Below are positions 4,844 to 24,914 of a stretch of DNA of 64,000 nucleotides, one piece after another. The stretch comes from a virus. The position numbers and the translations under genes were made by a program. The first letter of the stretch is position 1; each line of letters begins with the position of its first letter. The notes below the pieces were generated by a model, which was given only the letters and a program-made list of their open reading frames with translations, did no database searches and was not told the origin of the DNA. The stretch is from IMG/VR virus record IMGVR_UViG_3300028654_000012, positions 52,674-116,673 of that record; one strand, given 5' to 3'.

Positions 4844-5527
4844 ATGAAAACAATTTTGATTTATAGCGGCGGACTTGACTCAACCACTTTGCTTTACCAG
4901 TTGAAAGCGCAGGGACGTGACGTTAAGGCCCTCTCTATCAACTACGGTCAGCGTCATTCAAAGGAACTAGATTTCGCTAAGAGAAACTGCGATGCGCTGG
5001 GAGTGGAGCACCGAACGGTAGATCTCTCTTCTCTTAAACCCTTACTGGGGGGAAGTTCTCAGACGGATGCTAGTGTAGCTGTTCCCGAAGGTCATTATGC
5101 CGCGGAGAACATGAAACTCACGGTAGTGCCTAATCGTAACATGCTTATGTTATCCGTAGCAGCTGCCTGGGCGATTGCGGAAAAGGCTGATACTATTGCC
5201 TACGCGGCGCACTCCGGAGATCATGCTATCTACCCTGACTGTCGTGAAGAGTTTGTAGATGCTTTGAACAAGGCGTTAGGATTAGCTGATTGGCATACCG
5301 TTCAGATCGAGAGACCTTTTATCAACATCTCTAAATCTGATATTGTTAAGTTGGGCAACGATCTTAAGGTACCTTTTGCAGATACTTGGAGTTGCTACAA
5401 GGGTGGAGATAAAGCCTGCGGAGTATGTGGTACGTGTTACGAGAGGCGCGAAGCTTTCGTAGAGGCCGGCGTTACGGACCCTACTCCTTATCTAGACTCT
5501 ACTACTAAGTTTCAGGTCCCGGCATAA
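4844..5527 (+). CDS. queC: 7-cyano-7-deazaguanine synthase
   Basis: SGGLDS, YGQRH, VPNRN, YPDC, CYKGG..CGVCGTC. Confidence 0.95.
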   Translation: MKTILIYSGGLDSTTLLYQLKAQGRDVKALSINYGQRHSKELDFAKRNCDALGVEHRTVDLSSLKPLLGGSSQTDASVAVPEGHYAAENMKLTVVPNRNMLMLSVAAAWAIAEKADTIAYAAHSGDHAIYPDCREEFVDALNKALGLADWHTVQIERPFINISKSDIVKLGNDLKVPFADTWSCYKGGDKACGVCGTCYERREAFVEAGVTDPTPYLDSTTKFQVPA

Positions 5528-5713: not shown

Positions 5714-5959
5714 ATGAAAGAAAAACTAACTAAGCGGTACTCAAGAAAGCTATCCTATAAATACGCCTCAGAAGAGTTCTCTACGGAACTAACCCGAGAA
5801 GTAGATTATAATACTAAAGACGAATTCTTAGCTGCTAGTGAGAAGCTCGCCGCTCAAGTTAAGGCTCTGACAGCCCGAGATCTAGAGAAGCATTCTGAAC
5901 TTTTGAAAGAAGCTGTCGAAAACGGCGACGCTGTTAAAACACAGGAAACTACAGTTTAA
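5714..5959 (+). CDS. Hypothetical protein
   Basis: ORF in operon context. Confidence 0.6.
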   Translation: MKEKLTKRYSRKLSYKYASEEFSTELTREVDYNTKDEFLAASEKLAAQVKALTARDLEKHSELLKEAVENGDAVKTQETTV

Positions 5960-9005: not shown

Positions 9006-9722
9006 ATGAAACTAAAAGTCAATGAAATTTATGGGCCCGTAAAGCAGGGCGAAGGTAAATCATCTGGACTAGATGTTCTCTTCTTGAGACTATCTGGATG
9101 CAACTTAGCTTGTTCTTGGTGTGATACTCCTTACACATGGAACTGGGTAGGTACCAAGTTCGTTCACCCGGAGAAGTTTGATCCTATGAAAGAAATCGTT
9201 TTCATGGATACTAACGAAGTTAAGGTTGAATTAGATAAGCTTAATACTAAGGCCGTAGTAATCTCTGGTGGAGAACCTATGCTCCAACAGAAGCCTCTCC
9301 TCCCCTTGATTCAGGCCCTCAAGGCCGATAACTATTGGGTTGAGATTGAGACAAATGGTACTATAGCTCCCGAGCCCGAATTTCTTAATCTGGTAGACCA
9401 GATTAACTGCAGTCCTAAATTATCCAATTCAGGGCCTGATAATCGTCTCTCTATGAGAGAAAGACCTGAAGCACTTACTGCTTTAGCTGATTCCCCTAAG
9501 GTCTCTTTTAAGTTTGTAGTATCCTCTGATAAGGATATGGTGGAGATTGACTCACTAATTTCTAGGTTCTCTATGAAAGAGGTTTACCTCATGCCGGAAG
9601 GTAAGACTCGGGTAGAACAATTAGCTCGCCAGGATAAGATTAAAAAGCTTTGTGAAGAAAAAGGATTCAAGTTTAGCCCCCGACTACATGTATTAGAGAA
9701 TGACTCTAAACGGCGGATCTAA
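9006..9722 (+). CDS. queE: 7-carboxy-7-deazaguanine synthase (radical SAM)
   Basis: QGEG, FLRLSGCNLACSWCDT, SGGEP, ETNG, SPKL. Confidence 0.95.
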   Translation: MKLKVNEIYGPVKQGEGKSSGLDVLFLRLSGCNLACSWCDTPYTWNWVGTKFVHPEKFDPMKEIVFMDTNEVKVELDKLNTKAVVISGGEPMLQQKPLLPLIQALKADNYWVEIETNGTIAPEPEFLNLVDQINCSPKLSNSGPDNRLSMRERPEALTALADSPKVSFKFVVSSDKDMVEIDSLISRFSMKEVYLMPEGKTRVEQLARQDKIKKLCEEKGFKFSPRLHVLENDSKRRI

Positions 9723-9725: not shown

Positions 9726-10751
9726 ATGGCTCACCTTTATCATCTTCTTACCTATCTATTTGTACTAGGCGTTGTCGTTACCCTCCATGAAATGGGCCAT
9801 TATCTGGCCTGCAAATCTCAAGGAATAAGAGTAGACACCTTCTCCCTAGGCTTCGGCCCAGTACTAGCTAGCACTACTCTATGGGGAACTCTTTTTACAC
9901 TCAGGCTAATACCCTTAGGGGGATTTATTATTCCTGCTGGAGCCGGCAACCGCCCTGAAACTGCTACTGAAGGAGAGTACTTCAGTAAAGCGTGGTATAA
10001 GCGCCTTATCGTAGTATACGCAGGACCAGCTATGAACTTCGTTCTAGCCTTCCTTATCTTTGTAGGATTACTGTGGGCTAGAGGAATTCCTAGCTACACT
10101 GATGATTCTATTATAGGGCAGATGGAGAAAGGTTCCTTAGCGGACAAGGCTGGGCTACTTCCCGGTGACGAAATAATGTATGTCAACGAGGAACCTGTAG
10201 ACACTTGGCATCGTATGCGGTTGGAGATTTCTGTTTCAGGACCGGACTTAAGCCTTGTTGTTCTCCGAGGACACGCTTTAAAAACTTTTCACATTCCTTT
10301 CGGAATAGAACCTCCCCGCCTCCTAGGAATCCTGCCTCTGCAAACATACACTCCTCTAGGTTTAGTAGCCGCTAGTAAGGAAAGTGCTAGTATATGCACT
10401 TTCCAAGTCACTCAAACTTACCAAATCCTTTCAGCTAATTTAAGGCATGGTAAGAAAGCCGAGCTAGCAGGCCCTATAGGCATCTATCAAGCTGTAGCAC
10501 AAGCCTCCTCAGATTGGGTAGAGACTTTTTCGCTCATGGCTATAATCTCACTATCACTAGGCATCTTTAACCTACTACCTATTCCTCTATTAGACGGAGG
10601 AACAGGAGTTCTATTCTGGTGGGAAGGATTAACCGGAAAGTATCCCTCCACCTTAGTTGTAAATATATTCCAGCTAGTAGGCTTAGTTGTTATAGGCTTT
10701 ATTCTCCTGTTCGCCACAGCAGGAGATATAGGCAGACTTCTAGGTCATTAA
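9726..10751 (+). CDS. rseP: RseP-like site-2 intramembrane metalloprotease (M50, one PDZ)
   Basis: HEMGH, FSLGFGP, AGPAMN, PDZ (AGLLPGDEI), NLLPIPLLDGG. Confidence 0.92.
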   Translation: MAHLYHLLTYLFVLGVVVTLHEMGHYLACKSQGIRVDTFSLGFGPVLASTTLWGTLFTLRLIPLGGFIIPAGAGNRPETATEGEYFSKAWYKRLIVVYAGPAMNFVLAFLIFVGLLWARGIPSYTDDSIIGQMEKGSLADKAGLLPGDEIMYVNEEPVDTWHRMRLEISVSGPDLSLVVLRGHALKTFHIPFGIEPPRLLGILPLQTYTPLGLVAASKESASICTFQVTQTYQILSANLRHGKKAELAGPIGIYQAVAQASSDWVETFSLMAIISLSLGIFNLLPIPLLDGGTGVLFWWEGLTGKYPSTLVVNIFQLVGLVVIGFILLFATAGDIGRLLGH

Positions 10752-10789: not shown

Positions 10790-11761
10790 GTGGTTACAAT
10801 CAAATCTCTTCGCCTGCAAAACTTCCAGGCACACAAAGACACTACTATAGACTTTGACGATTACTTCAATTGCGTTATTGGGGCAACTCGATCAGGTAAG
10901 TCCGCTATGGTACGAGCTCTTAATTTCCTAATATATAATGTATGGCACTCTGCTTATGTAAGGCATGGTAGTACCGAGGTAGTAATCACCGCGACTTTAT
11001 CAAATGGGTTCACCGTTGTTCGTACCAAAGGGGATAAGATTAACCAGATTGATGTAAGAGACCCTCAGGGAAAGGTTAAGACATATGATAGTTTCGGTAC
11101 GAACTTACCTAAGGAAGTGTGTACTGTGCTAGGTATTAATCCCCTTCAGATAGATGAAGACGAGTTCATTATGTCTAACGTGGTAGACCAAGATGAACCC
11201 ATGTTCCTCTTAAAAGAAAGTGGACCTACTAAAACAAAGATCCTTGCTCGATTAGCCGGGTTACATTGGATAGATTTTGCATTAAAAGACCTTAATAAAG
11301 ATAGGCGGCGACTATCCGGAGAAACAGATAACTTAAAGACGTCTAATTATGAGCTTAATCAGAAATTAGCTAAGCTTCCTGACCTTAGCATAGTCAGAGG
11401 CCAAGTATCCCTAGCCCGCGCAAGGTACGAGAGTCTACGAGAGCTAGATACGCACTATAACACTGCATTAGCTCTCAAACAAGACATTACTTCTTGGAAG
11501 AGTCAATACGCTGAGTTTAAGAAGCTTAAAGATCTTAACTTTAGCAATTTGATTAAACATGCGACAACGGCTCAGGAACTATATCAGAGCTATCATAGAT
11601 TAAAGGATTTGTCATATAGATTGGAGAACATAGCGGACTCTACGAAGAATTTAGCTTCCGTTAGAAAGACTTCTCAAAAGGACCAGAAAGAATTAGAGCA
11701 CCTTCTAGAAGAAGCTATGGTAGCCGCTCCCGTATGTCCTACATGTAAGAGAGAATTATAA
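10790..11761 (+). CDS. SbcC/Rad50-like ATPase, N-terminal half
   Basis: LQNFQAH, Walker A GATRSGKS, Q-loop region, coiled coil, terminal CPTC hook. Confidence 0.85.
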   Translation: MVTIKSLRLQNFQAHKDTTIDFDDYFNCVIGATRSGKSAMVRALNFLIYNVWHSAYVRHGSTEVVITATLSNGFTVVRTKGDKINQIDVRDPQGKVKTYDSFGTNLPKEVCTVLGINPLQIDEDEFIMSNVVDQDEPMFLLKESGPTKTKILARLAGLHWIDFALKDLNKDRRRLSGETDNLKTSNYELNQKLAKLPDLSIVRGQVSLARARYESLRELDTHYNTALALKQDITSWKSQYAEFKKLKDLNFSNLIKHATTAQELYQSYHRLKDLSYRLENIADSTKNLASVRKTSQKDQKELEHLLEEAMVAAPVCPTCKREL

Positions 11762-12693
11762 TGAAAGCATTGGTTCTTGGAGATCCTCATTTCTGTGATA
11801 GAGTACCTCTTCGCAGAGTAGATAATTTTCTACAGGCTCAGTTTAACAAACTTACTAACCTAGAAAATATAATTAGAGAAGACAAAGAGATAGACGCTCT
11901 CTTTCTTTTAGGAGATGTATTCGATATACCTAAGCCCTCTCTAGAATTAGTTAATAGAGTTATGGATCATCTAGATCGTATTAACAAGCTACTACCTTTA
12001 GGCATATACTCTATTGTAGGTAACCACGACGTACATGGCAGAGTAGAAAGTATACAAGAGACCGCTCTAGGAACTCTATATGCTTCCCGCTTAGTAAAAC
12101 AATTAACTGGTACCCAGATAATCAAAGGCATTCCTTTTGTAGGGATAGATTACTTAGTAAATCATACTCCTGAAATATACCGTGGAAACAATCAAATCAT
12201 CTTAACCCATAATATGCTACTTCCCGCACCAGCTATTTTTAAGCATATATTAGCTCGAGACTTAAATGGTACTGTACAAAATACTACCATATTCGCAGGA
12301 CATTATCATTCCCCCTTTAACGTAAACTTGTCCAATAACAGTAGCGTAATTAACCCTGGAGTATTAGTACGTACAGATATCGCTGAAAGAAAGATAGTTC
12401 CTAGTGCAGTTAAATTTGAAGCTACTATGAGCCCTAATTTAAACGTAAGCTGGCAACGATTGCCTTTAGAGAAGGACAATGGCGATCAAGTATTTAACTT
12501 AGAGGACTATAAAGAAGAGAAGACTCAAAAGTTAGATTTAGAAAAGTTTATTAATGGTCTTAAACAAAGTCAGTTTGAAAGTCATGATATTGAAAAATTA
12601 ATTGAAGAAGTGGGTAATTTATCTAATGTTAGTGAGACTATTTTACAAGAGGCTTTAAAAAGAATTAAATCAGCCCGCGCAATTGTACGTTAA
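11761..12693 (+). CDS. SbcD/Mre11-like nuclease
   Basis: GDPH, LGDVFD, GNHD, GHYH metallophosphoesterase motifs. Confidence 0.88.
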   Translation: MKALVLGDPHFCDRVPLRRVDNFLQAQFNKLTNLENIIREDKEIDALFLLGDVFDIPKPSLELVNRVMDHLDRINKLLPLGIYSIVGNHDVHGRVESIQETALGTLYASRLVKQLTGTQIIKGIPFVGIDYLVNHTPEIYRGNNQIILTHNMLLPAPAIFKHILARDLNGTVQNTTIFAGHYHSPFNVNLSNNSSVINPGVLVRTDIAERKIVPSAVKFEATMSPNLNVSWQRLPLEKDNGDQVFNLEDYKEEKTQKLDLEKFINGLKQSQFESHDIEKLIEEVGNLSNVSETILQEALKRIKSARAIVR

Positions 12694-13013: not shown

Positions 13014-13193
13014 ATGGACTTCTCCAAGTGGAGATTCTTAGAGTGTGATAAAGGATGTGCACACTTGCCCACGAGTGAAGTATGCGCTAACTATTGTATG
13101 CATAATATACACTTAGATAAGTGGTGTAGAGAGTGTAGAAATCTTTGCGGTGTAGTTAACGCTAGACCAGATGATAACCAGGAGAGACTATGA
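13014..13193 (+). CDS. Cys-rich microprotein (59 aa, not in track)
   Basis: MDFSKWRFLECDKGCAH..CANYCMH..WCRECRNLC; stop overlaps the queD ATG. Confidence 0.55.
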   Translation: MDFSKWRFLECDKGCAHLPTSEVCANYCMHNIHLDKWCRECRNLCGVVNARPDDNQERL

Positions 13194-13663
13194 TTGTATC
13201 GAAGACATTAAAGTTTGAAGCAGGACATCGCCTAGCATTCGGCTATCCTGGTAATTGCCAGCATGCTCACGGACATAGTTACATTGTCACTGTAGTAATG
13301 GAAGCTACTACAGATGATCTTGATAAATTCGGATTCGTAAAAGACTTCAACGATTTTAAACCCCTTAAGCAGTGGATTGACGATAAGTGGGATCATGCCT
13401 TTTTAGTAGCTCAGAATGATACTCCCATGCTCACCTTCTTGAGAGAGAATAAGCAGAGACATTTCATCTTCGATAGCAACCCTACCGCAGAGAACATTGC
13501 CCGGGAGTTGTTTATTGTAGCTGAGGAACTTCTAAATGATGGAGGAGCTACGGTTACTGAAGTAAGAGTAAACGAGACCGCTACATCTGAAGCCGTTTAT
13601 AGATCTACTTTAGTTCAAGACGCTTTAGATGCACGGAGACTTTTAACTGCAGCTAAGGCTTAA
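13190..13663 (+). CDS. queD: 6-carboxytetrahydropterin synthase
   Basis: FEAGHRL, CQHAHGHSY, DHAF, NPTAENIA, ETATS. Confidence 0.93.
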   Translation: MIVSKTLKFEAGHRLAFGYPGNCQHAHGHSYIVTVVMEATTDDLDKFGFVKDFNDFKPLKQWIDDKWDHAFLVAQNDTPMLTFLRENKQRHFIFDSNPTAENIARELFIVAEELLNDGGATVTEVRVNETATSEAVYRSTLVQDALDARRLLTAAKA

Positions 13664-13923: not shown

Positions 13924-14051
13924 TAGACACTATCGTAGCTTGGTTTCAAGTGAACGCGGCCGGCATAGTTGTCGGTCTTCTTCTCTGGGTTATCTTTCTT
14001 GTAGTTATCGCTGATCATGTTGAACGCCAAAATAACCTCCCTAGGCAATAA
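13920..14051 (+). CDS. 43-aa transmembrane microprotein (not in track)
   Basis: MIDTIVAWFQVNAAGIVVGLLLWVIFLVVIADHVERQNNLPRQ; ATGA coupling. Confidence 0.45.
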   Translation: MIDTIVAWFQVNAAGIVVGLLLWVIFLVVIADHVERQNNLPRQ

Positions 14052-14658
14052 AATTGTTTCCGTAGAACAACGGCTACAGCACCTTGAGGGCCAAAAAGAA
14101 ACTCTCACTACTCAGCTCACTGAAAATAATCGTCGGCTAAAAGATATTATCACTGAGGAAGACACTTTTCTTAAAGCCTCATCCCTCCTACAATCGGTAT
14201 CTGAAAAGACTCGCGATCTAAGCGTTACTAAGATAGAGTCTATTATTACCAGCGCTCTCCAAGAAATAATGGATAATGTCCATTTACAGTTCGTAATTGT
14301 TTTCGAAAATAAACGAAATGCGGTTGCAGTAGAATTTAAGATAAGAGATACCCAGTTAGGTACCGACTTAGATATAGTTCATTCAGAAGCCGGAGGTATT
14401 AAGAATGTAGTATCTACTATCCTACGACTAATTATTATTGATTTACACCATCCTAAAATCGAAGGACCAATTGTATTAGATGAGGTAGGGGCTAATATTA
14501 GTGTAGAATACCAAGAACGCTTCGGTAAGTTTCTTAAAGATTATAGTAAGATGATGGGCCGTCAGATTATATTAGTTTCACATCATGACAAAGTTAAAGA
14601 ACATGCTGATAAGCTAATTCGTCTTCGAAAGCTTAATGCGGACACTCAGGTAGAGTAA
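14017..14658 (+). CDS. SbcC/Rad50-like ATPase, C-terminal half
   Basis: Coiled coil, divergent signature SEAGG, Walker B IVLDEVG, H-loop LVSHH. Confidence 0.85.
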   Translation: MLNAKITSLGNKIVSVEQRLQHLEGQKETLTTQLTENNRRLKDIITEEDTFLKASSLLQSVSEKTRDLSVTKIESIITSALQEIMDNVHLQFVIVFENKRNAVAVEFKIRDTQLGTDLDIVHSEAGGIKNVVSTILRLIIIDLHHPKIEGPIVLDEVGANISVEYQERFGKFLKDYSKMMGRQIILVSHHDKVKEHADKLIRLRKLNADTQVE

Positions 14659-15065
14659 TGGCTAAAAAGAAACGCAAGAAGATACCTGCTAGAACTATAC
14701 TCCGCCGCTTACATAACAAAGCAGACAAGGCTATTAGTCTTTACGTAAGGGCCATAACCGAGATAGAATATGGCGCTTGTGCCATATGTCTAAAGAATCC
14801 TATTCAATGTTGTTTTCACTTTGTTAGAAGAGGACGTAAGGTACTACGCTGGCATTTACCTAACTTAGTAGGTACATGTCACCGATGTAATTATATAGAG
14901 TATCGTAATCCAGACATCTCTAGAGCTTGGTACATTAGACGTCATGGAGCTGATAGATACCTAGCTTTAGTAGATAGATCTATGACTAATTTTGAGCCAA
15001 CCCCTGAATTTCTTCAGGGGGTTATAGACAACTTTACTGTACAGCTAAAGAATTTGTATAAGTAA
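14658..15065 (+). CDS. NinG/Rap-like HNH-fold endonuclease
   Basis: CAIC..CFH..RWHLPNL..TCHRCN. Confidence 0.65.
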   Translation: MAKKKRKKIPARTILRRLHNKADKAISLYVRAITEIEYGACAICLKNPIQCCFHFVRRGRKVLRWHLPNLVGTCHRCNYIEYRNPDISRAWYIRRHGADRYLALVDRSMTNFEPTPEFLQGVIDNFTVQLKNLYK

Positions 15066-15066
15066 G

Positions 15067-15315
15067 ATGAAAGAAACGGAAGCTTTCTGCGTTGAGAATA
15101 TTCAAAGGATACTTGCAGGCAAGAAGCCTACCTTTAAGAATAAAGTACTGGCCGAGCTCTTCAAAAGAGCCGCAGACGAAGTTATAGAGAAAGCAGGTAC
15201 CAATAAAGTTACCGTAAATGGCGTAACAATTTATAAGAAGAAATCTACCAAGCAATATATAATTCATATTCGATGGACACCTAATGACCGAAAAAAAGAA
15301 CGACCTAAGTCCTGA
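15067..15315 (+). CDS. Hypothetical protein
   Basis: ORF in operon context. Confidence 0.5.
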   Translation: MKETEAFCVENIQRILAGKKPTFKNKVLAELFKRAADEVIEKAGTNKVTVNGVTIYKKKSTKQYIIHIRWTPNDRKKERPKS

Positions 15316-15745
15316 ATTTATTAGGAACCTGCAGGCCTCTATGGAAGATCCCGCTGCCGGAACTGACTCTCCTATAGAGGCTATCCAACGACTTAGAAAA
15401 GCTGAGAATCCTACTAATATGGAAGATCTACGTCGCCGCCTTGATGAGAACGCTGGACGCTTTTCCCCTAAGGTGGTGTTCCCTGGCGAGCAGGTTCAAC
15501 CTTCCGTCCCGAAAGCTCCTCCGCCTCCTCCAGAGGAGAAAGTAACTACTCGCGTTGTTTATAAAGGACATCGGTATAATGGCGATTTCTTTTCATGTAT
15601 GGCTGTAGCTTTAGTAGAACTTAATAATCCTAAGGTAAACGAAGTCATGAGAGCCTGGGCCTTCGTTCTTAAAGACCTAGATGGAAATCAGATTTTCCCT
15701 CCTAAAACTATTTCTAGACCTCGCTCCAAAAAGAAGAAAAAGTAG
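15284..15745 (+). CDS. Hypothetical protein
   Basis: ORF with Pro-rich linker and basic C-terminus. Confidence 0.6.
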   Translation: MTEKKNDLSPEFIRNLQASMEDPAAGTDSPIEAIQRLRKAENPTNMEDLRRRLDENAGRFSPKVVFPGEQVQPSVPKAPPPPPEEKVTTRVVYKGHRYNGDFFSCMAVALVELNNPKVNEVMRAWAFVLKDLDGNQIFPPKTISRPRSKKKKK

Positions 15746-15771
15746 TATAATTAAGTAGCGAGAGGTAAAGC

Positions 15772-18222
15772 ATGTCTTTTGACTTAATCCCCAACCAGAA
15801 TTGTTCTCTATGTGGTCTATGTAAGACCCGTAAGGCTATCGTCAATGGTGTAGGACCTATTACATCAAAGATTATGGTGGTTAGAGAAGGTCCTAACTTT
15901 GAAGAAGATAAGATGGGATCCCCTATGCTCGGTGAAGCCGGGAGACTCTGGCGTAATCTTCTAAAACAGGCGGGCATCGATTACAGAGATATATTCATGA
16001 CTAATCTGACTAGATGTCATGGAGGAGTAGTCGATTTTAAGAAAGGTCCTAAAGATCCTTCAGCTGAAGAGATAGCTGCTTGTGCCCCTTTTCTAGACGA
16101 AGAGATTAAAAGAATCCAGCCTGTAGTTATTGTACCCGTAGGTAATATAGCTCTTAGGTATTTCTTAGGAAGTAAAGTAGCTTCTATTATGACCCATAGA
16201 GGCACAGAATTCTGGTCAGAGAAGTACAACTGCAAAGTTATCCCCGCTATTCACCCCGCTGCCATCCTTAGAAACCCTCAATATACTTCCATCACAATTC
16301 AGGACTTAGTTAGAATCAAACAGTCTTCTACATATACAGGCCTCACACCTAAAGGTGCAGGTACATATACTATCGCAGATACTTTCGATAAGGTAGAATC
16401 TCTATTCGCAGGCCTAGAAGCTGCCAGTGAGTTGGCAATAGATATCGAGACGACCGATTTAAATCCTCTCACCAGTGATATATCTTGTATTGGATTTAGC
16501 TGGAAAGAAAAGGAAGGCTGGTGCTTACCTATCATGAAGGCAGGTGGAAGTACTGATTCCTTTTGGGACAAAGAGTATGCTGTAGCTCTCTGGGAGAGAA
16601 TTAGACGTATACTAGAAGGTCCTGCTAAGAAGATTGGACACAACTTTAAGTTCGATCAAAAATTCTTCATAATGAAGGGTATCAAGTTAAATAACTTTTA
16701 TTTTGATACTATGTTAGCACATCACCTCATTGACGAGAATGCTGAGAATCTACACGGCCTAAAGGACTGTGCCTGGGCATATACTGATATGGGTGGATAT
16801 GATAAGGATCTAGACGACTGGTTTAAAGCTAATAAGCAATTCAAAGGACAGTATATCCAAGTACCTTTTGCTATGCTTAACGAATACTGCGCTAAAGATG
16901 CTGATTGCACCTTTAGACTTTTTAAAGTATTTGAACCGCAGATCACTAGTATGGACCTTACCAGACTGATGAGACAGATAGTATTACCTGCGAGAGATGT
17001 CTTAATGGATGCCGAACTACTAGGTATTCAGGCAGATAAGGACTATATTGAAAAGCTTCGTGTAGAGTATTCTACAAAGAGAAGTTCTCTAGAACAGAGT
17101 ATCTTTGATTCAGTAGGTAAGCCTTTTAACATTAACTCTTCTAAGCAACTGCAAGTCATCTTATTCACCGACTTAGGGTTCGCGCCTGTAGGTAAGACAA
17201 AGGGAGGAGGATTATCTACTGATAATGCAGCCATAGATCTCATTGCTAAAGCCAACCCTAACCATCCCGTACCTAAGTTACTATTAGAATACAAAGATTG
17301 TCAGAAGATCCTTAGTACTTTTATTGAAGGGTTATCTGAACATATAGATGTAGACGGTAGAGTACATAGTAATTACAAGCAGCACGGTACTACAACCGGT
17401 AGATTATCTTCTAGCGAGCCTAACATGCAACAGATTCCTCGCGAATCTATTGTGAGAGGAATATTTGTATCACGCCCTGGATTCAAGTTGATCGAGGCAG
17501 ACTTCTCCTCAGCTGAATTTAGATGGTGGGCAGAGTATAGTAGAGATCCTCAGATGGTAGAAGATCTAAGGAACGGAGTAGATATTCACAGAATGACTTA
17601 TGCTCTATCTCACGGAATAGATATAGCTCTTGTGACAGATTCCCAACGTCAGCAGGCTAAGGCAACAGTATTCGGACTCATGTACGGAAGAGGTACTTGG
17701 TCGCTAGCTGAAGAGCTAGGCATTGCTGAATCTGAAGCAAAGAAAATCGTAAGTATCTTTTTTGGAAGGTATCCCCAAGCCCAAGCTTGGTTAAAGCAGC
17801 AAATCTTTGTAGCTAAAAAGACAGGTCAAGTAGTTAATTACTTTGGAAGAATTCGCAGACTTCCTGGAATTACTAGTAGTCAGGATCAGGCTAGATCTGA
17901 GGCCGAGAGACAGTGCAAGAATGCCCCAATCCAGAGTGCAGCAGCTGACATGACTATGATCGCTTCTATTAGAGTTAAAAAGGCTTTAATTAACGCAGGA
18001 CTTTCAGGTAACTTAGTCATGACTGTACACGACTCACTAGTGTATGAAGTTCCAGAAAATGAGGTAGCTTCTACATTCAGTATAGTTAAGGGTGAGGCGG
18101 AGCGGCCAGTAGCAGGAGCTATAGTTCCTATGCTTGTGGATATCAAGGTAGGCACTCGGTTAGGCTCTCTAAAGAAGGTAAAGAACGTATCAGAATTATC
18201 TTCTGAATTATGTATTAAATAA
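15772..18222 (+). CDS. polA: Family A DNA polymerase with N-terminal family-4 UDG domain and 3'-5' exonuclease
   Basis: UDG: CxxC Fe-S Cys, TNLTRC, HPAAILR; exo DIETT, GHNFKFD, YCAKDAD; pol ADFSSAEFR, KATVFGLMYG, VHDS. Confidence 0.93.
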   Translation: MSFDLIPNQNCSLCGLCKTRKAIVNGVGPITSKIMVVREGPNFEEDKMGSPMLGEAGRLWRNLLKQAGIDYRDIFMTNLTRCHGGVVDFKKGPKDPSAEEIAACAPFLDEEIKRIQPVVIVPVGNIALRYFLGSKVASIMTHRGTEFWSEKYNCKVIPAIHPAAILRNPQYTSITIQDLVRIKQSSTYTGLTPKGAGTYTIADTFDKVESLFAGLEAASELAIDIETTDLNPLTSDISCIGFSWKEKEGWCLPIMKAGGSTDSFWDKEYAVALWERIRRILEGPAKKIGHNFKFDQKFFIMKGIKLNNFYFDTMLAHHLIDENAENLHGLKDCAWAYTDMGGYDKDLDDWFKANKQFKGQYIQVPFAMLNEYCAKDADCTFRLFKVFEPQITSMDLTRLMRQIVLPARDVLMDAELLGIQADKDYIEKLRVEYSTKRSSLEQSIFDSVGKPFNINSSKQLQVILFTDLGFAPVGKTKGGGLSTDNAAIDLIAKANPNHPVPKLLLEYKDCQKILSTFIEGLSEHIDVDGRVHSNYKQHGTTTGRLSSSEPNMQQIPRESIVRGIFVSRPGFKLIEADFSSAEFRWWAEYSRDPQMVEDLRNGVDIHRMTYALSHGIDIALVTDSQRQQAKATVFGLMYGRGTWSLAEELGIAESEAKKIVSIFFGRYPQAQAWLKQQIFVAKKTGQVVNYFGRIRRLPGITSSQDQARSEAERQCKNAPIQSAAADMTMIASIRVKKALINAGLSGNLVMTVHDSLVYEVPENEVASTFSIVKGEAERPVAGAIVPMLVDIKVGTRLGSLKKVKNVSELSSELCIK

Positions 18223-18223
18223 T

Positions 18224-18655
18224 ATGAGCACAACCACATTACTCGTTAAGTTAAATAGTCCTGACGCTAAAGTACCTTTTAAAGCACATCCAGATGAAGA
18301 TGCTGGATTTGACTTAGTAGGTACTCATGATGCGACAGTTAAAGCTTTTGAATCGGCTATAATCGATATCAAATTAAGTTTAGGCATTCCCAAAGGATTT
18401 TATGGCCAATTAATGACTAGATCTTCTATGGGTAAAGCTGGCCTACGAATTCACCCAGGAGTTATCGATGCGGGGTACAGAGGCAATATCTCTGTAATAG
18501 TAATCAATCTAACTAGTAGAGACTACGAGATTCATACAGGAGATAGAGTAGCCCAGCTACTAATCTTACCTGTACCTAAGGTAAAGATAGAAGTAGTAAC
18601 AGAATTACCTGAGTCAAGTAGAGGCGAAGGCGGCTTTGGAAGTACAGGAAAATAA
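18224..18655 (+). CDS. dut: Trimeric dUTPase
   Basis: AGFDL, RSS, GVIDAGYRG, GDRVAQL, RGEGGFGSTG. Confidence 0.95.
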   Translation: MSTTTLLVKLNSPDAKVPFKAHPDEDAGFDLVGTHDATVKAFESAIIDIKLSLGIPKGFYGQLMTRSSMGKAGLRIHPGVIDAGYRGNISVIVINLTSRDYEIHTGDRVAQLLILPVPKVKIEVVTELPESSRGEGGFGSTGK

Positions 18656-19588
18656 ATGGAGACTCTAATGGAAACAGTTAATACAGGGAGCCGGTTGGAA
18701 ACAATTTCACGTAATGGTGGATTTAAGAAGTCAGCTCTCCCGGACGTACATATTACCCCTGACGAAAGAGGGATTGAGATTAATCGCGTCGGAGTAGAAG
18801 GGGTAGCAGTACCTATTGTGTTAAATAGAAAGGGTGGCGGGGAGCCTGTAAAGACTTTAGCTAAGGTAAATATGTTTGGATCCTTAGAGAAGGAATTAAA
18901 GGGAACCAATATGAGCCGATTTGCTCAACTGTTTGTTACAGAGGATAACCATTCGGTTCTATCAGGTAATTCATTTCCCGACCTATTAGAAAGACTATCA
19001 ACTAGCTTAGGAACAAAGGATGTATACATTTCTGCAAGCTTTGATTACTGGATGAATAAGACTACTCCTGTAAGTAAGATTTCCGCTCCTTCAGGGTATG
19101 CCTGTAGATTTATTGGACAGCTCGTATCAGGTAAGTTGAAGTTTGTTACGGAAGTAACAGTTCCCGTAGCTTCTTACTGCCCTTGTAGTAAAGAGATGTG
19201 TCTTACAGATCCTAAGACGGGTGTAGGTCTCGGAGCTCACGCGCAGAGAGGTCTAGTAACTCTACAGGTGATCACTAACCCTCCTACTCCAGGACTATGG
19301 CTAGAGGACATGATTCGCATCGCAGAGACATCAGGTTCAGCTGAACTATACCCTATTCTTAAGAGAGAAGATGAGAAGTACGTCACTATTGCAGGATATG
19401 ATAATCCTAAGTTCGTAGAAGACATCTCTAGAGACGTAGGTAACAAGGTTCAGTTACTACCTGACGCCGTTTGGTATAAGGTTAGAACCCGCAATCTAGA
19501 ATCTATTCATCCGTACGATGTAACTTCGTATGTCGGACAAATTAAGAAAGGCGATGAGTGGGTATCTGACACCCGCAGTTTCTACTAA
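18656..19588 (+). CDS. folE2: GTP cyclohydrolase I type 2 (FolE2/MptA)
   Basis: KGTNMSR, CPCS, AHAQR, NPKFVED, ESIH. Confidence 0.92.
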   Translation: METLMETVNTGSRLETISRNGGFKKSALPDVHITPDERGIEINRVGVEGVAVPIVLNRKGGGEPVKTLAKVNMFGSLEKELKGTNMSRFAQLFVTEDNHSVLSGNSFPDLLERLSTSLGTKDVYISASFDYWMNKTTPVSKISAPSGYACRFIGQLVSGKLKFVTEVTVPVASYCPCSKEMCLTDPKTGVGLGAHAQRGLVTLQVITNPPTPGLWLEDMIRIAETSGSAELYPILKREDEKYVTIAGYDNPKFVEDISRDVGNKVQLLPDAVWYKVRTRNLESIHPYDVTSYVGQIKKGDEWVSDTRSFY

Positions 19589-19598
19589 AGAGGATACC

Positions 19599-19988
19599 AT
19601 GAGAGACGGAGAAATATATAGAGTAGTTGGCGCAAACAACGCACAGATTGAACAAGCGTTTAATCAGTTGCGTATGGAAGTAGTTACCCTTCAGGCAGCC
19701 CTTATTTCTGAGGTACTACGTACTCAAGCTATGGAAGAAGTGTTAGTAGAAGTTACGGCAGCTGCTAACCCTCCTAAAGATGCCCTTAACTTACCTGCTC
19801 CGTTAGTTGTAACAAAAGAAGCTATCGAAGCTAGGTTTAAAGCTAAACTAGAAGCTTATGAAAAGAAAATCGAAGAGCGTAAAGCAGCTCAGGCAGCAGC
19901 GAGAGAAGCAGCGGCAGCGCCAAAGATCGTCGCTCCGACGGCTGAAGAGATGGCTAAGATCAATCAACCAGTAACACCTAATGCATAA
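19599..19988 (+). CDS. Hypothetical coiled-coil protein
   Basis: AGAGG RBS before ATG 19599 (track start 19530). Confidence 0.55.
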   Translation: MRDGEIYRVVGANNAQIEQAFNQLRMEVVTLQAALISEVLRTQAMEEVLVEVTAAANPPKDALNLPAPLVVTKEAIEARFKAKLEAYEKKIEERKAAQAAAREAAAAPKIVAPTAEEMAKINQPVTPNA

Positions 19989-20535
19989 GAATCCGTACAT
20001 CGTATTTGCAGGTACTCAGTCTGTAGGAAAGACTACCTTAGTTAAAGCAACTATACCTCTGCTACAGGAATTATATAACAAGCCTGTATATCATATAGCT
20101 GAAGTAGCTAGAAAGCTGAGTGCTCAAGGACATACTATCAATAGCGCCAGCAACGGTACCACCCAGCGATTAATAGAGGATGGGTATGCCGCTGAGGAAG
20201 CTGCTAATGCTGATAAAGTCTTAATAGCAGATAGAAGCGTCATAGATAGATACTCCTATACTTTATTGAGTAAGGCCGTAGAAGATGTAAGCTTAGTGCA
20301 ATGGTATGAACATTTTATTCCTAGCACGTGTGCCAAGTATAGTCATATCTTCTTCATCCCTCTGTCTGATGACGTTAAACTTGAAGTAGATGGGGTTAGA
20401 TCTTCTGATGAGGATTTTAGAAAAGCTGTAGACACTACTCAGCAGATGATAATTAACAAGTTTAATATTAAAGTCACTAGATTACACGGCTCTACTGAAC
20501 AACGACTTGTACAGATAAAAAAGGCTTTACAATAA
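19981..20535 (+). CDS. P-loop nucleotide kinase (AAA_28/NadR-like)
   Basis: GTQSVGKTT, DRSVID, DGVR lid motif. Confidence 0.8.
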   Translation: MHKNPYIVFAGTQSVGKTTLVKATIPLLQELYNKPVYHIAEVARKLSAQGHTINSASNGTTQRLIEDGYAAEEAANADKVLIADRSVIDRYSYTLLSKAVEDVSLVQWYEHFIPSTCAKYSHIFFIPLSDDVKLEVDGVRSSDEDFRKAVDTTQQMIINKFNIKVTRLHGSTEQRLVQIKKALQ

Positions 20536-20536
20536 T

Positions 20537-21304
20537 ATGATTATTAGCTACGAGATCCCTACACCTAATCTAAAGGACCTAGGAAAGTATAACGATTATA
20601 GTTTTTGCTTAGCTCATCTTGCTTTGCAAGATAAAGCGTATGTAGCTTACTATAAAAACGCTCCTGGATACAAAATAGTAGATAATTCTATTTTCGAATT
20701 AGACCATGCACTTCCGTACGCGGATGTTATGAAGGCAGCTGGCATCTTGCGAGCTAATGAAGTAGTATCACCAGACAGTTTTCAGAATAGTGCGAAGACT
20801 ATAAAAGCAACGGAAGATTTCTTAAAATACTTCTCTGCAGCAGGATTAGTGGGTAAGTATAAGGTAATGGGCGTTGTTCAAGGATCTAACATACCTTCAT
20901 GGGTTAAGTGCTTTACGTGGATGGATAAGAACCCTTTGATTGATGTTATAGGTATCAGTTATGTGGGATGTGCTTCATTCTCTACAGAGCCTACTGATTC
21001 TAGAGTAAAAGCAGTTAAGTATGCTATAGACCATATCAAACCTACCAAGCCTCTACATCTATTAGGCATTGGCGGAAATCCTATGGAAGTAGCTCTACAG
21101 AAGACATTCTCGCAGGTACGTAGCTGCGACACGTCTATTCCGGTAGTAGACGGCTATTACAACGTTAGATACGATATGGAGAAAGGCTCTAATATCTTAC
21201 CTAAGAACAAACGTCCTTCTGATTATTTCAATTTAACTTTGAATAGCAGCCAGTTGACCGATGCAAACTTTAATATGCAATGTATGAGAAAGTGGATCAC
21301 ATGA
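20537..21304 (+). CDS. TGT-fold guanine transglycosylase, candidate DpdA-type
   Basis: Motif order of TGT: VDNSIFE, SPD, GVVQG, IGIS, LHLLGIG, SCDTSIP; genome encodes the preQ0 pathway. Confidence 0.7.
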   Translation: MIISYEIPTPNLKDLGKYNDYSFCLAHLALQDKAYVAYYKNAPGYKIVDNSIFELDHALPYADVMKAAGILRANEVVSPDSFQNSAKTIKATEDFLKYFSAAGLVGKYKVMGVVQGSNIPSWVKCFTWMDKNPLIDVIGISYVGCASFSTEPTDSRVKAVKYAIDHIKPTKPLHLLGIGGNPMEVALQKTFSQVRSCDTSIPVVDGYYNVRYDMEKGSNILPKNKRPSDYFNLTLNSSQLTDANFNMQCMRKWIT

Positions 21305-21936
21305 GTTACTTTAAACAACGGGGATTAACAGACCAGACCGTTAAGACGTTTAATCTAGGATATTGTGATACTTCCGGTTATGTAACAGTACCGGAAGTTT
21401 CTTCTTTTATAGATAGGCGGTTCTATCACAGTGCCCTGTTCCCTATATACAATTTATATAACGTCCCTATATCTGTGTCGGCGAGACCTTTATCCCCGGG
21501 ATCTCCTTTTAAGTATGTCCATACACATTATGATAAGGCCCACCACATGTACGGGCTCAATGTAACCTGGCCGGATATCCTTAAAGCTCGAAAAGCGTAT
21601 ATAGTAGAGGGTAACTTTGACCTCCTGACCTTGTATCAATATGGTATTACAAACACCGTAGCAATGTTAGGGTCTCAATTTTCTCCTACGCAACTTTGTC
21701 TATTAACAAGATTTTGTGATGAAATTGTTATAGCCACGGACGGAGATGAGCCCGGGATTAAGTGCGCAAGTAAAATTATGAAGTTATGTCAATCAAGAGG
21801 CATTAAAAGTTCATTATTAAAACTACCTCCTAACATGGACCCGGATAATTTTGTTAAGACCTATGGGGCATCCGCTTTCTTAAAATTAGCCCCGAAGACA
21901 TTATCAGAGATGTTACAAGGAGGTTCAAGTGCGTAA
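21301..21936 (+). CDS. DnaG-type primase catalytic/Toprim domain lacking a Zn finger
   Basis: FNLGY, LFPI, KYVHT, IVEGNFD, ATDGDEPG, DPD. Confidence 0.88.
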   Translation: MSYFKQRGLTDQTVKTFNLGYCDTSGYVTVPEVSSFIDRRFYHSALFPIYNLYNVPISVSARPLSPGSPFKYVHTHYDKAHHMYGLNVTWPDILKARKAYIVEGNFDLLTLYQYGITNTVAMLGSQFSPTQLCLLTRFCDEIVIATDGDEPGIKCASKIMKLCQSRGIKSSLLKLPPNMDPDNFVKTYGASAFLKLAPKTLSEMLQGGSSA

Positions 21937-21954
21937 TTTATTCCAAGAATAACA

Positions 21955-22560
21955 ATGAACGATATCGCAGTCACGGACAGCTTAGGATTACCGAGAGTAA
22001 AAAGATGGTATACGTTAAAGACAAATGGCATAGCTAATATTCGATCAATTAATGCGTGCCTCAAAGTAGCGCCTGAAGTACCTAATTTTTGGATGGCGGG
22101 ATATATGGTTCCCCGCAAGATTAGAAAAACCACTACCCTTAAGAAAGATTTTTTCTACTACGATTACGCATTCCTCGAATTAGAAGATGCAATGACATTC
22201 GAGAAGTTCTTATCAGATCGCCACATCCCCGCCTACTTCCTTCACCACGTTGGAACTAAAATCCCTCAAGCTTTAACTGAACAAGAGATTTCAGATATTA
22301 AGCAATTAGAGATTTTAAAGCAACTTGAAGTCGAAGCATTTAAGACCCCTCTATTAAGATCCGGAGCTTACATTGAAGTAACTCACGGACCCTTTATTGG
22401 GTGTAAAGGGATAGTCAAAGAGATTACAGGATCGTATGCAGTGCTTGAAATGAATGTTTTTGAGAGACCCACATCGGTTAGAGTAGAGCTAGAGTTCCTA
22501 AAAGACCTACTTCAGTCATGTGAGCCCGTAGCAGAATGTGTAGATGAAGACACCGAATAA
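21955..22560 (+). CDS. NusG-family transcription elongation/antitermination factor
   Basis: NGN-like WYTLKT..YAFLEL and KOW IEVTHGPFIGCKGIV..LEMNVFERPTSVRV. Confidence 0.8.
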   Translation: MNDIAVTDSLGLPRVKRWYTLKTNGIANIRSINACLKVAPEVPNFWMAGYMVPRKIRKTTTLKKDFFYYDYAFLELEDAMTFEKFLSDRHIPAYFLHHVGTKIPQALTEQEISDIKQLEILKQLEVEAFKTPLLRSGAYIEVTHGPFIGCKGIVKEITGSYAVLEMNVFERPTSVRVELEFLKDLLQSCEPVAECVDEDTE

Positions 22561-22939
22561 TAAATCTTTCCGTGGACAGACCGATGTCAACACCGATAGG
22601 TTCATTTTTCGCATACAGCGAGAAATACCTATTGAAGACGTCGAATTAGAGAAGTTAGTAAATGATAATCAGACAGCGATCGCGCAGACTCAGACGGACG
22701 AAGAACGACTAACTGAGCGACAAGAGTTTCAAGAAAAGCGTAAAGAGTTAGTCGAAAAGTTGTTTGCCGCGGCGACTAAGGTACTCACAGACATACAGTT
22801 TCAAATATTTACTTCCTATTTTGTAATGGGAATGAGCGAGCCCCAGATAGCGTCTTCTATGAACGTAACGCAGCCTTACATAAGTATTGTGTTAACGGCG
22901 TCGATCAAAAAGATCAAAAAAGAACTCAAGATCGACTAA
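22544..22939 (+). CDS. Sigma-70 region 4-only protein
   Basis: LTDIQFQIF..MSEPQIASSMNVTQPYIS..SIKKIK. Confidence 0.7.
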   Translation: MKTPNNKSFRGQTDVNTDRFIFRIQREIPIEDVELEKLVNDNQTAIAQTQTDEERLTERQEFQEKRKELVEKLFAAATKVLTDIQFQIFTSYFVMGMSEPQIASSMNVTQPYISIVLTASIKKIKKELKID

Positions 22940-23016
22940 CGACCAATTGTCGTACCCGTTATCCCTCTGTTATATATAATATAATAGCAATTTAACTTAG
23001 TAACCGGGGCCTAATA

Positions 23017-24198
23017 ATGTCTGCGACAATATATGTAAAAGACGATGGGGATTATTTTTTAACAGCTGCCCAATACTCCCTATTTAAAACCTATTCAGAT
23101 TTGGCAGTTAATTGGGTTAAGGTAGCCGAAGATAACGTTGATCTAACTCCTGAACAGCAAAAGGAGTACAACGATAATATAGCTAAAGCCGTTGGATGGG
23201 CTAAGAGCTTAAAGTTTAAACCCGAAATGGGTATAGACCCCTCCTCATTCGCACACACAATTCTTCTTCACGCAGTAAAGACTTACGATGGAGCTAAAGG
23301 TACAGCATTCTCAACATGGCTCTACAGAATTATGCAGCAGCAAGCTGCCACACTTTGGAACAAGTATACTAAGTATTTAGAAGACACCTCAGGCGGAGAA
23401 AGATCGTTAGCCGAACCAGTATCAATGCCTGGAGGAGAAGAAGTAGAACTAGAGCAGTTACTTGAAGGTGTAGAGCAGTTAAGAGTACAAGACGATCCCG
23501 CCTATAATATCCTCCGCAGTCAACTTAAAGACCTCCTCGGCCAAGCCGATCCCTCAGGCAGACTTTTCCGCATCTACCGTATGTTAGTAGAGGAAGGTCT
23601 CTCAAACCCCCAAGTAGCCTCCGCTGAAAATCTTTCACCCTCTCGAGTTACGGGACTGGTTAAGAAAATTCAAGAAGTTCTAAAGAACCACGGAGACATT
23701 AAAGAGCTATTGGAGAATGGAGGATCTACAGAAGAAAATAAAACTTCTGCAATTCGCCGGTTTATCTTTAGAGAAGGAGACCACGTCAACGTAATGTCTC
23801 TGGATAAACCTGGAGTAATTATTAAAGCTTATAAGGGAAATGTATTTGAAGTAAGATTAGATTACAATAACAATATTACTCGTACAGCCCGGCACGATCT
23901 AGAAAAGTATTCCACGGTAACTGATTCTGTAATTAAAGCCTCAAAGCATTTCTTCGGGTTGAGTATCCGAACTCCCCGTTGCTACGCTGCTCGCGTTAAT
24001 AATAACGATAAATCTGTAATAGCTGTTCTTGAATTTAGACCCACATCTGAAATTACTACCCTAGCCAGTCTATACATGGGAAATACTATTGCGGGCAGTG
24101 TTGAGATTTCTGAAGGATCACTAACAAACTTAGTTGATCTCGTTAAGATAAAAATGGGTACAGATGCTAAATTAGACCCCGAGTTTCTATCACTTTAA
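23017..24198 (+). CDS. Sigma-like factor fused to SH3/KOW-like and unknown C-terminal domains
   Basis: AVKTYDGAKGTAFSTWL (region 2), LSNPQVASAENLSPSRV (region 4), then FREGDHVNV barrel. Confidence 0.7.
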   Translation: MSATIYVKDDGDYFLTAAQYSLFKTYSDLAVNWVKVAEDNVDLTPEQQKEYNDNIAKAVGWAKSLKFKPEMGIDPSSFAHTILLHAVKTYDGAKGTAFSTWLYRIMQQQAATLWNKYTKYLEDTSGGERSLAEPVSMPGGEEVELEQLLEGVEQLRVQDDPAYNILRSQLKDLLGQADPSGRLFRIYRMLVEEGLSNPQVASAENLSPSRVTGLVKKIQEVLKNHGDIKELLENGGSTEENKTSAIRRFIFREGDHVNVMSLDKPGVIIKAYKGNVFEVRLDYNNNITRTARHDLEKYSTVTDSVIKASKHFFGLSIRTPRCYAARVNNNDKSVIAVLEFRPTSEITTLASLYMGNTIAGSVEISEGSLTNLVDLVKIKMGTDAKLDPEFLSL

Positions 24199-24914
24199 TG
24201 GCTCTACGCGAATTTAATACTGAATCGGATATTAAGAACTTTAAAAGCAAGCTTTTCTTGCTGCCTAAAAAGCTCCAACTCCAGATCAATCAGATGATCG
24301 AGGAGGGCCACAAAGAGTGGGCTATTGAGGGTATGATTAAGAGGGAATACAAGGGTACTCTTGGATGTCCAACAGCTCCTACTATCGGTGTATATATAGA
24401 TTGGTATGAAGCTCGTAAAAAGATGAATGCCGAGAAGGGTATTGTAGAAGTAATGTCTCCCAATTCGTTAGCTGTTTTAGAAAAGAATGATATAGATGAG
24501 ATTGCTGATGAACGTAAAGCCATTTTAGATAAGGCTACGTCCACAGACAATAAGAAGGACCTATTAGAAAATTTGATTCGTAAGTGTATTGAACGTATCA
24601 GAAAGCTGGAAGAAGTACAAGAGTTAGAAGGATCTACCAGCTCGTTAGAAGCGGTACTAGGTAGTTACGTAAGAGAGATTCATTCTATTGTCGCTACGCA
24701 GTTAAAACTATCTGGCGAACTTGAGAAAGAGACTAACGCTGCCATTGCAGAGATGGTTAATCAAAATTTATATACTCTTATTCAGATTGTTTTCGAAGAA
24801 ATAAGAGCTGAAGCCCCTGAAAAGGCTGATGAGATTCGCAATAGAATCATGACAAGGTTGTCCGAAGTAGAAGCACTATCAAGTGTATCTACAGAAATGG
24901 TACAGGAGAAATAA
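24198..24914 (+). CDS. Hypothetical helical protein (possible terminase small subunit)
   Basis: N-terminal HTH-like plus coiled-coil layout; function is weak inference. Confidence 0.35.
   Translation: MALREFNTESDIKNFKSKLFLLPKKLQLQINQMIEEGHKEWAIEGMIKREYKGTLGCPTAPTIGVYIDWYEARKKMNAEKGIVEVMSPNSLAVLEKNDIDEIADERKAILDKATSTDNKKDLLENLIRKCIERIRKLEEVQELEGSTSSLEAVLGSYVREIHSIVATQLKLSGELEKETNAAIAEMVNQNLYTLIQIVFEEIRAEAPEKADEIRNRIMTRLSEVEALSSVSTEMVQEK

Follow-up and report, generated by a model that had tools for sequence, protein, structure and literature searches.

A kinase gene partnered with DpdA3 in a phage replication module and a possible nucleotide-level route to complete replacement of guanine by 7-deazaguanine

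The stretch of DNA analysed here, which we call the window, comprises the final 64 kb of an IMG/VR virus record of 116,673 bp (IMGVR_UViG_3300028654_000012; CheckV completeness 56%) from a large uncultured phage. A block of + strand genes, spanning window positions 1 to ~42,700, holds a replication and nucleotide module with a DpdA3-type 7-deazaguanine genome-substitution system, in which the transglycosylase gene directly follows a gene for a small P-loop kinase. The locus is a further member of the DpdA3 systems, and its conserved kinase partner is, within the literature searched, previously undescribed. Some phages replace 100% of their G by 7-deazaguanines, and DpdA3 is the sole candidate enzyme for this. 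Here, we describe the linkage of this kinase to DpdA3, which is tight, specific and reciprocal, far beyond chance, and we weigh a route in which the two proteins would act on free nucleotides before replication.

The proteins of phages phiST, CP220 and immuto were named DpdA3 by Cui, Hutinet et al., as a subfamily tied to complete G replacement, which in virion DNA is known only for these three phages (PMC10516641). In their E. coli model the authors obtained no modification of DNA with DpdA3, and free ADG nucleoside was detected in CP220-infected cells (PMC10516641). An earlier paper from the same group allowed a modified-dGTP route for Campylobacter phages (PMC6884629), and a paper of December 2025 still classes 7-deazaguanine as a nucleic-acid-level modification (PMC12783734). 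The word "kinase" occurs 0 times in PMC10516641, so that the DpdA3 partner goes unmentioned there, and no description of a DpdA3-linked kinase or of nucleotide-level exchange was found in the literature searched, in which subscription journals are mostly outside coverage.

The kinase and DpdA3 genes and their products

The two genes lie next to each other on the same strand:

19981..20535, + strand: P-loop small-molecule kinase, AAA_28, 184 aa (Pfam AAA_28 E 1.2e-15)
20537..21304, + strand: DpdA3-subfamily 7-deazaguanine transglycosylase, minimal tRNA-guanine transglycosylase (TGT) barrel, 255 aa (tblastn, phrog_19058, AlphaFold2 fold)

As the initial annotation had claimed, they are separated by a 1-nt gap: the kinase gene ends with TAA at 20533-20535, a single T follows at 20536, and the DpdA3 gene starts with ATG at 20537. 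The two genes are probably translationally coupled. A promoter and terminator scan of positions 15000-24500 returned fewer sites than shuffled sequence and thus nothing that points to an interruption of transcription near these genes, and a megablast search with window positions 18000-24000 against 50,697 phage records recovered no near-identical phage.

Sequence relationships place the TGT-like protein in the DpdA3 subfamily as published. Its closest named relatives by tblastn are the annotated DpdA of Flavobacterium phage immuto (gp206; 31.6% identity, 98% query coverage, E 1e-18), Campylobacter phage CP220 gp056 (32.5% identity, E 3e-19) and Cellulophaga phage phiST CGPG_00065 (26.3% identity, E 4e-12), with query coverage of 83-98% across the three, together with hypothetical genes of several Bacillus phages. 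Two PHROGs without an assigned function, phrog_19058 (E 2.4e-19) and 20335, are strongly matched and are also the PHROGs of the named DpdA3 proteins. The window protein and these orthologs, at 26-32% identity over most of their length, carry the same motifs. This is a large family, for which public data contain 5222 clusters formed at 50% identity (E <= 1e-3). The Pfam TGT family (PF01702) is matched below its gathering threshold (E 0.003, 17.2 bits vs 26.3), and the protein is not called a tRNA-guanine transglycosylase by that measure.

Among PDB entries the relationship to TGT is visible by fold only; a DpdA3 profile search of PDB sequences returned nothing meaningful. An AlphaFold2 model of the protein (predicted local distance difference test score, pLDDT, 96.1) has tRNA-guanine transglycosylases as all of its best PDB matches (Foldseek probability 1.0), and it aligns with Z. 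mobilis TGT over 229 residues at a VIA Z of 18.1, a root-mean-square deviation of 3.0 A and 11% identity. Invariant in an alignment of 36 homologs are D49 (DNSxFE), D80 (PD), Q115-G116, H174-L-L-G177 and S196-C-D198-T-S; R156 and K171 are invariant as well. The motifs listed first agree with those that serve catalysis and base recognition in TGT and bacterial DpdA (PMC10164549), and D49, D80 and D198 are placed at the general acid/base, base-recognition and nucleophile Asp, a match by motif position and not by residue-level superposition.

The initial annotation had described a short TGT-like protein lacking the C-terminal Zn-binding Cys cluster, and this description held: 57 residues follow the nucleophile Asp198, a single Cys is among them, and there is no cluster. 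In TGT and bacterial DpdA (bDpdA) the nucleic-acid-binding surface is formed by Ins8, an element of 128 residues that carries the Zn site (PMC10164549); the Zn subdomain and most of Ins8 are missing from the window protein. The missing Zn cluster does not discriminate DpdA3, because DpdA1 of the phage 9g type also lacks conserved Cys after SCDSS. DpdA1, DpdA2 and bDpdA share the motifs DxS...F, H-x-x-G and SCD(S/T)S with DpdA3, but DpdA1 and bDpdA are longer (317 aa in 9g; ~128 extra Ins8 residues plus the Zn site in bDpdA), and the profiles of DpdA3 and DpdA1 show marginal similarity (hhalign E 0.01). Among the top 150 DpdA3 representatives, the long forms are formyltransferase fusions or carry unknown extensions; DpdA3 and a PurN-like formyltransferase (DpdN-type) are fused in the 447-aa proteins P0193 and P0276, and as separate genes the two are neighbours in 53/80 loci.

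The kinase is of the NadR/AAA_28 type, as first proposed: it matches Pfam AAA_28 (PF13521) at 58.5 bits against a cut-off of 27, over profile positions 2-164 of 164, and its Walker A motif reads GTQSVGKT. It also matches phrog_2107, annotated "thymidylate kinase" (E 7.6e-17). Its AlphaFold2 model (pLDDT 92.5) has dTMP kinases as top Foldseek matches, with the NadR ribosylnicotinamide kinase (RNK) domain equally good by TM-score (TMq 0.68), and a profile of the family retrieves from PDB sequences a deoxynucleoside kinase (8puu, E 1.2e-6), a thymidylate kinase (2pbr, E 1.4e-5), NadR (6gye, E 3e-5) and a deoxyguanosine kinase (2jas, E 7.6e-4). None of the curated equivalog cut-offs is reached (19.3 bits vs 83.25 for dTMP kinase TIGR00041).

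Residues G11, G16, K17, T19, R44, N54, Q62, R85, D89, D137, R140 and R175 are invariant in the kinase family alignment. Conservation outside the P-loop, at E41/R44, N54, T61-Q62, D84-R85, D89 and D137-G-x-R140-S (the DR and DDGxRS motifs), is what a small-molecule kinase with its acceptor site and LID would show, and by fold and profile, too, the protein is of this type. Like the NadR RNK domain and thymidylate and deoxynucleoside kinases, it combines their fold and P-loop with a DR(S/C/T) motif and a LID that bears Arg, but it has neither the nicotinamide mononucleotide adenylyltransferase nor the helix-turn-helix domain of NadR. The modelled fold fits a (deoxy)nucleoside kinase or a deoxynucleoside monophosphate (dNMP) kinase, and either substrate level would be possible.

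Members of this kinase family are also present in 22 Streptomyces phage records that have no detectable DpdA3; in Streptomyces phage Coruscant (L180) the gene, at 4992-5597, lies in a replication module that also holds a MazG-like gene. One family member, P0323 (L184:3499-4860), representing a cluster of 63 member sequences, has an extra ~270-aa C-terminal region without a Pfam match, and its locus is ordered QueC-DpdA3-formyltransferase-kinase-QueF.

Linkage of the kinase family to DpdA3 across phages

A gene-neighbourhood survey, which the initial annotation had named among the tests of its proposal, found the pair conserved. A hidden Markov model (HMM) of the kinase family was run on 80 IMG/VR DpdA3 loci, taken from at least 562 relatives, and 63 of the 80 contain a match, which in every case shares the strand of DpdA3 and is no more than 2 kb away. 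In eight of the 17 kinase-negative loci the downstream flank is shorter than 2 kb, another (L059) carries the kinase 7 kb off in the full record, and two have a different P-loop open reading frame (ORF) upstream of DpdA3. When neighbours within 4 kb were clustered by BLAST, the kinase was the commonest companion of DpdA3 in the 80 loci (62), with QueF in 56, the formyltransferase DpdN in 53, and QueE and FolE in 32 each. The pair occurs in several arrangements: DpdA3-formyltransferase-kinase in 36 loci, DpdA3-kinase in 16, DpdA3-formyltransferase-x-kinase in 6, and kinase-DpdA3 in 4. The kinase is present in 8 of 10 DpdA3 clusters formed at 50% identity, and the pairwise identities of the two proteins are correlated (r = 0.83).

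In the reciprocal direction, DpdA3 lies within 8 kb in 80/80 kinase-seeded IMG/VR loci, a figure biased to immuto-like clades because the search was seeded with a subset alignment of immuto-like kinases. DpdA1 systems of the phage 9g type, taken as a control, have no kinase partner (0/86 loci, 1.04 Mb), and the kinase is also absent from the whole records of phage 9g and three other DpdA1 phages (93-100% complete). The raw Fisher p for the kinase in DpdA3 versus DpdA1 loci is 2e-30, a value that overstates independence because the DpdA1 control is phylogenetically narrow.

Whole records of CP220, immuto, a complete 210-kb relative of the window phage (G001) and G004 all contain the kinase. As in the window, it stands beside DpdA3 in both named phages: CP220 gp057, the best phage homolog of the window kinase, is encoded immediately 3' of DpdA3, and in immuto an AAA_28 kinase lies two genes downstream. 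The CP220 record holds a second kinase paralog elsewhere (5419-5931). Relatives of the window clade (45-50% identity, contigs of 143-210 kb) keep the run PolA-dUTPase-FolE2-...-kinase-DpdA3-Toprim, the kinase-DpdA3-Toprim order being seen in L005, L007 and L011-L013, and in many loci the kinase and DpdA3 genes overlap or are separated by 1 nt. The kinase family is absent genome-wide from phiST and Bacillus phage BSTP12. In phiST an AAA_18 small P-loop protein is encoded directly upstream of DpdA3, and in BSTP12 the gene in that position (BSTP12_039) encodes a small P-loop protein with a weak full-length kinase-profile match that includes the DR motif, suggesting that the function is kept there by displacement.

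The surrounding module and the search for dGTP removal

The pair is embedded in a run of pathway and replication genes:

4844..5527, + strand: QueC, 7-cyano-7-deazaguanine synthase family (Pfam QueC E 2.8e-67)
9006..9722, + strand: QueE-like radical SAM enzyme (Pfam Radical_SAM E 1.3e-9, Fer4_12 E 2.6e-8)
13190..13663, + strand: QueD, 6-carboxytetrahydropterin synthase, PTPS family (Pfam PTPS E 7.6e-28)
15772..18222, + strand: family A DNA polymerase (Pfam DNA_pol_A E 7e-103, UDG E 3.9e-24, exo1 E 5e-21)
18224..18655, + strand: trimeric dUTPase (Pfam dUTPase E 6.9e-32; NCBIfam dut equivalog 110.6 bits vs cut-off 103)
18656..19588, + strand: FolE2-type GTP cyclohydrolase I (Pfam GCHY-1 E 4.6e-69)
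19530..19988, + strand: hypothetical protein, 152 aa, low-complexity, Ala/Glu/Lys-rich (likelier start ATG 19601)
21280..21936, + strand: TOPRIM half of a split DnaG-type primase (Pfam Toprim_2 E 1e-18, DNAG_N E 3.7e-8)

The order polA-dut-folE2-hypothetical-kinase-TGT-primase given in the initial annotation stands, except that its "primase" is the TOPRIM half only. The CHC2 zinc-ribbon half is encoded ~17 kb away at 4305-4811, a split that is retained in relatives L005, L007 and L011-L013; the TOPRIM gene overlaps the 3' end of the DpdA3 gene. Upstream of the pair, the QueC, QueE-like and QueD genes are interspersed with genes for replication and repair and belong to one strand block with FolE2, and the QueE-like family of the window is also present in other DpdA3 clusters. 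Neither the window's record nor the complete 210-kb relative yielded a QueF, and the predicted base is therefore preQ0 or the amide ADG. The 152-aa hypothetical protein has no match in Pfam, PHROG or NCBIfam and is not kept in all relatives, the FolE2-kinase interval of L007 being without it. The polymerase carries a domain of the uracil-DNA glycosylase (UDG) superfamily at its N-terminus (residues 26-170) in addition to a 3'-5' exonuclease, an architecture also present in L005 and L007.

Known DpdA3 phages likewise have FolE, QueD and QueE, in some cases with QueC, in the same module beside a family A polymerase. The window differs from them in having FolE2 instead of FolE, in its kinase-first order with the 1-nt gap, in the scattering of its pathway genes over 16 kb among replication genes, and in that no QueF, DpdL, DpdM or DpdN was found in it.

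Pre-replicative systems of complete substitution, such as those of T4 and S-2L, have an enzyme dedicated to removing the canonical dNTP. Genes for all-alpha nucleoside triphosphate (NTP) pyrophosphatases occur in other DpdA3 clades: a PRA-PH-like gene in immuto and 19/80 loci, a MazG-like gene in the phiST DpdA3 cluster, and in L009 a PF18909 (dGTP_diPhyd_N) gene adjoining the kinase. A xanthine/guanine phosphoribosyltransferase (XGPRT)-like gene is present in 20/80 DpdA3 loci; in immuto-like clusters a short gene of this kind lies between QueE and FolE (L033:3855-4259). Such an enzyme could either recover guanine set free by the exchange or attach ribose to the deazaguanine base. None of these genes was found in the window's record or the complete relative by Pfam-based genome searches, which are insensitive. 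Three proteins were not taken as dGTPases. The HD protein of G001 is a CCA-adding enzyme; CP220 gp055, with HD and AAA_33 domains, resembles a polynucleotide kinase/phosphatase-type protein and was not counted; and the window dUTPase passes the dUTPase equivalog cut-off. In CP220 (L001), an HD(HDIG)-AAA_33 fusion is encoded at 4868-5899, directly upstream of DpdA3.

An SbcC/Rad50-like ATPase of the window is apparently split, its Walker A N-terminal half and its SMC_N C-terminal half being separate ORFs (10790-11761, 11761-12693, 14017-14658), with an SbcD-like phosphoesterase, small ORFs and QueD between the halves. Directly 3' of the QueE-like gene, within the replication block, lies a gene (9726-10751) for a membrane metalloprotease of the M50 site-2 type that has a PDZ domain. 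Positions 21955-24198, 3' of DpdA3 and the TOPRIM gene, hold a NusG/KOW-like gene, a gene for sigma region 4 only and a 393-aa sigma-like gene, and these are followed by very long ORFs of 1466 and 1578 aa. In one clade of six DpdA3 loci (L029:8166-8429 and five others), a DUF3310 gene fills the slot between the formyltransferase and QueF genes that is held elsewhere by the kinase.

Candidate routes to complete guanine replacement

As a general rule, phages that substitute a base completely draw the replacement from the nucleotide pool, as with hydroxymethylcytosine in T4, hydroxymethyluracil in SPO1 and Z in S-2L. Counter to the published post-replicative proposal, we regard a nucleotide-level, pre-replicative route as more probable for DpdA3 systems than any other single mechanism, and hold it tentatively, at somewhat less than even probability. 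FolE2, QueD, QueE and QueC would convert GTP to preQ0 (or the amide ADG), and DpdA3 would swap guanine for preQ0/ADG on free dGMP or dG by a double displacement involving the conserved Asp49 and Asp198. The adjoining thymidylate/deoxynucleoside-kinase-like protein would phosphorylate the exchange product, a host nucleoside diphosphate kinase would complete the modified triphosphate, and the phage PolA would write the modified nucleotide into DNA in place of G. A dedicated kinase (19981-20535) and a phage polymerase (15772-18222) are both encoded in the window; their action on the modified nucleotide is what we propose. This route is favoured by the linkage to a small-molecule kinase, the NTP pyrophosphatases found elsewhere, the stripped-down barrel of DpdA3 and the rule that complete substitutions come from the nucleotide pool. 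The complete replacement of G in DpdA3 phages, the negative E. coli result and the free ADG nucleoside of CP220-infected cells (PMC10516641) also speak for it, as does the earlier suggestion of a modified-dGTP route (PMC6884629). The phage of the window would then have all of its G replaced. By the same guarded estimate, again just short of an even chance, DpdA3 may be the first enzyme with a TGT fold whose substrate is a free deoxynucleotide or deoxynucleoside and, together with the kinase, may provide a widespread pre-replicative route to all-G-substituted genomes.

The proposed logic resembles that of known pre-replicative systems acting at the dNMP level. T4 uses a dCTPase, dCMP hydroxymethylase and the gp1 dNMP kinase, and S-2L and phiVC8 use MazZ, PurZ and DatZ (general literature and PMC12783734). 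These systems and the proposed route would share the order dNTP pyrophosphatase, dNMP-modifying enzyme, dNMP kinase and phage polymerase, with complete replacement as the outcome. They differ in that T4 and S-2L perform chemistry on the attached base, whereas DpdA3 would exchange the base by a TGT-fold reaction, and their proteins are not homologous to those of the window except for the general kinase and NTP-pyrophosphatase folds. They differ also in the dNTP pyrophosphatase, which is found in some DpdA3 clades but, by insensitive searches, not in the window clade. DpdA1 and DpdA2 phages (9g and others) and the bacterial DpdA/DpdB systems share TGT-fold exchange using products of the preQ0 pathway, but their modification is partial, sequence-specific and post-replicative, affecting 0.1-30% of G (PMC10516641).

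Several points weigh against a nucleotide-level route. To our knowledge, the substrate of every TGT-superfamily enzyme characterised so far is a polynucleotide. The occurrence of DpdA3 in all phages with complete replacement has been read as meaning that all 7-deazaguanine DNA modification is post-replicative (PMC10516641), and the proposal of post-replicative insertion by those authors itself counts against the route. No dGTP-depleting enzyme of the MazG family, HD dGTPase or PF18909 kind (PF18909, PF01503, PF03819, PF12643, PF08761, PF01966) was found in the 56%-complete record or the 210-kb relative, by searches of low sensitivity that also failed to recover the MazG-like genes known from immuto and, in part, those known from phiST. 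Six of the kinase-negative loci, all short fragments, form one clade with the order DpdA3-formyltransferase-DUF3310-QueF. No ORF in 160 surveyed loci matched both the DpdA3 and the kinase HMM, and no fusion of the two was found among the top 150 DpdA3 representatives or the longer kinase-profile matches, which is weak evidence. Net charge and isoelectric point, taken as a proxy for DNA binding, were uninformative, DpdA3 and the DNA-acting DpdA1 both being acidic. Finally, the kinase family is not intrinsically a deazaguanine enzyme, because it is present in Streptomyces phages without DpdA3. The nucleotide-level reading of the initial annotation is upheld in part: the conserved and specific pair, the nucleotide-kinase-like fold and the MazG-type genes of other clades speak for it, and the failure to find a dGTP-depleting enzyme in its own clade speaks against it. 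Its enzymatic core, made up of exchange on dG or dGMP, phosphorylation of dPreQ0-MP and selective incorporation, stays at the level of a proposal.

The alternative that survives best, which we consider possible and clearly less probable than the nucleotide-level route, is that DpdA3 is a very efficient, sequence-independent DNA-guanine transglycosylase acting after replication, and that the kinase serves supply, for example by returning GMP formed from released guanine to GTP for FolE, or is a general dNMP kinase. Polymers are the substrates of the known TGT and DpdA enzymes, whose catalytic motifs DpdA3 retains; the XGPRT-like genes of DpdA3 clusters are consistent with guanine salvage, replication modules of Streptomyces phages hold this kinase family in the absence of DpdA3, and a post-replicative reaction is the view of the group that defined DpdA3 (PMC10516641). 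A supply kinase, however, fits poorly with the window clade, which keeps the kinase without a phosphoribosyltransferase, and with hosts that already own a guanylate kinase; DpdA1 phages also release guanine and use GTP, yet never carry the kinase. For a general dNMP kinase, the location inside the cluster beside DpdA3, in four gene orders, would be unexpected, and MazG-type dNTP pyrophosphatases in the clusters would make little sense if G were incorporated first.

It is improbable that the kinase-like protein is an NTPase cofactor for DpdA3 exchange on DNA, functionally similar to the ATPase DpdB. Bacterial DpdA does exchange guanine in DNA only with the help of DpdB and ATP (PMC10164549), and the tight coupling of the genes, with a 1-nt gap or overlaps in many loci, would suit such a role. 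The fold and profile, however, are those of thymidylate kinase, deoxynucleoside kinase and NadR-RNK and not of DNA-dependent ATPases, invariant residues stand at acceptor-site and LID positions outside the P-loop, and DpdB is ParB-like, an unrelated fold (PMC10164549). A mixed route, in which modified nucleotides would arise independently of DpdA3, for example through a phosphoribosyltransferase acting on the deazaguanine base and then the kinase and ribonucleotide reductase, and DpdA3 would only mop up residual G in DNA, has an equally small probability: it would account for complete replacement together with a retained TGT-type enzyme, and phosphoribosyltransferase and kinase do occur together in many clusters, but the phosphoribosyltransferase is missing from the window clade and from CP220-type loci, where DpdA3 and the kinase persist, and the route needs more steps than the other models.

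The comparative data reduce the question to a simple assay with two small soluble proteins. If the nucleotide-level route is true, the pair would represent a new enzymatic route to a non-canonical deoxynucleoside triphosphate, by base exchange instead of chemistry on the attached base, and could be an enzymatic source of the 7-deaza-dGTP analogues that are used in sequencing and PCR. It would also explain the failure of DpdA3 in the E. coli DNA-modification assay and the complete replacement of G in the phages that carry it, and the published view, in which 7-deazaguanine always enters DNA after replication, would be overturned.

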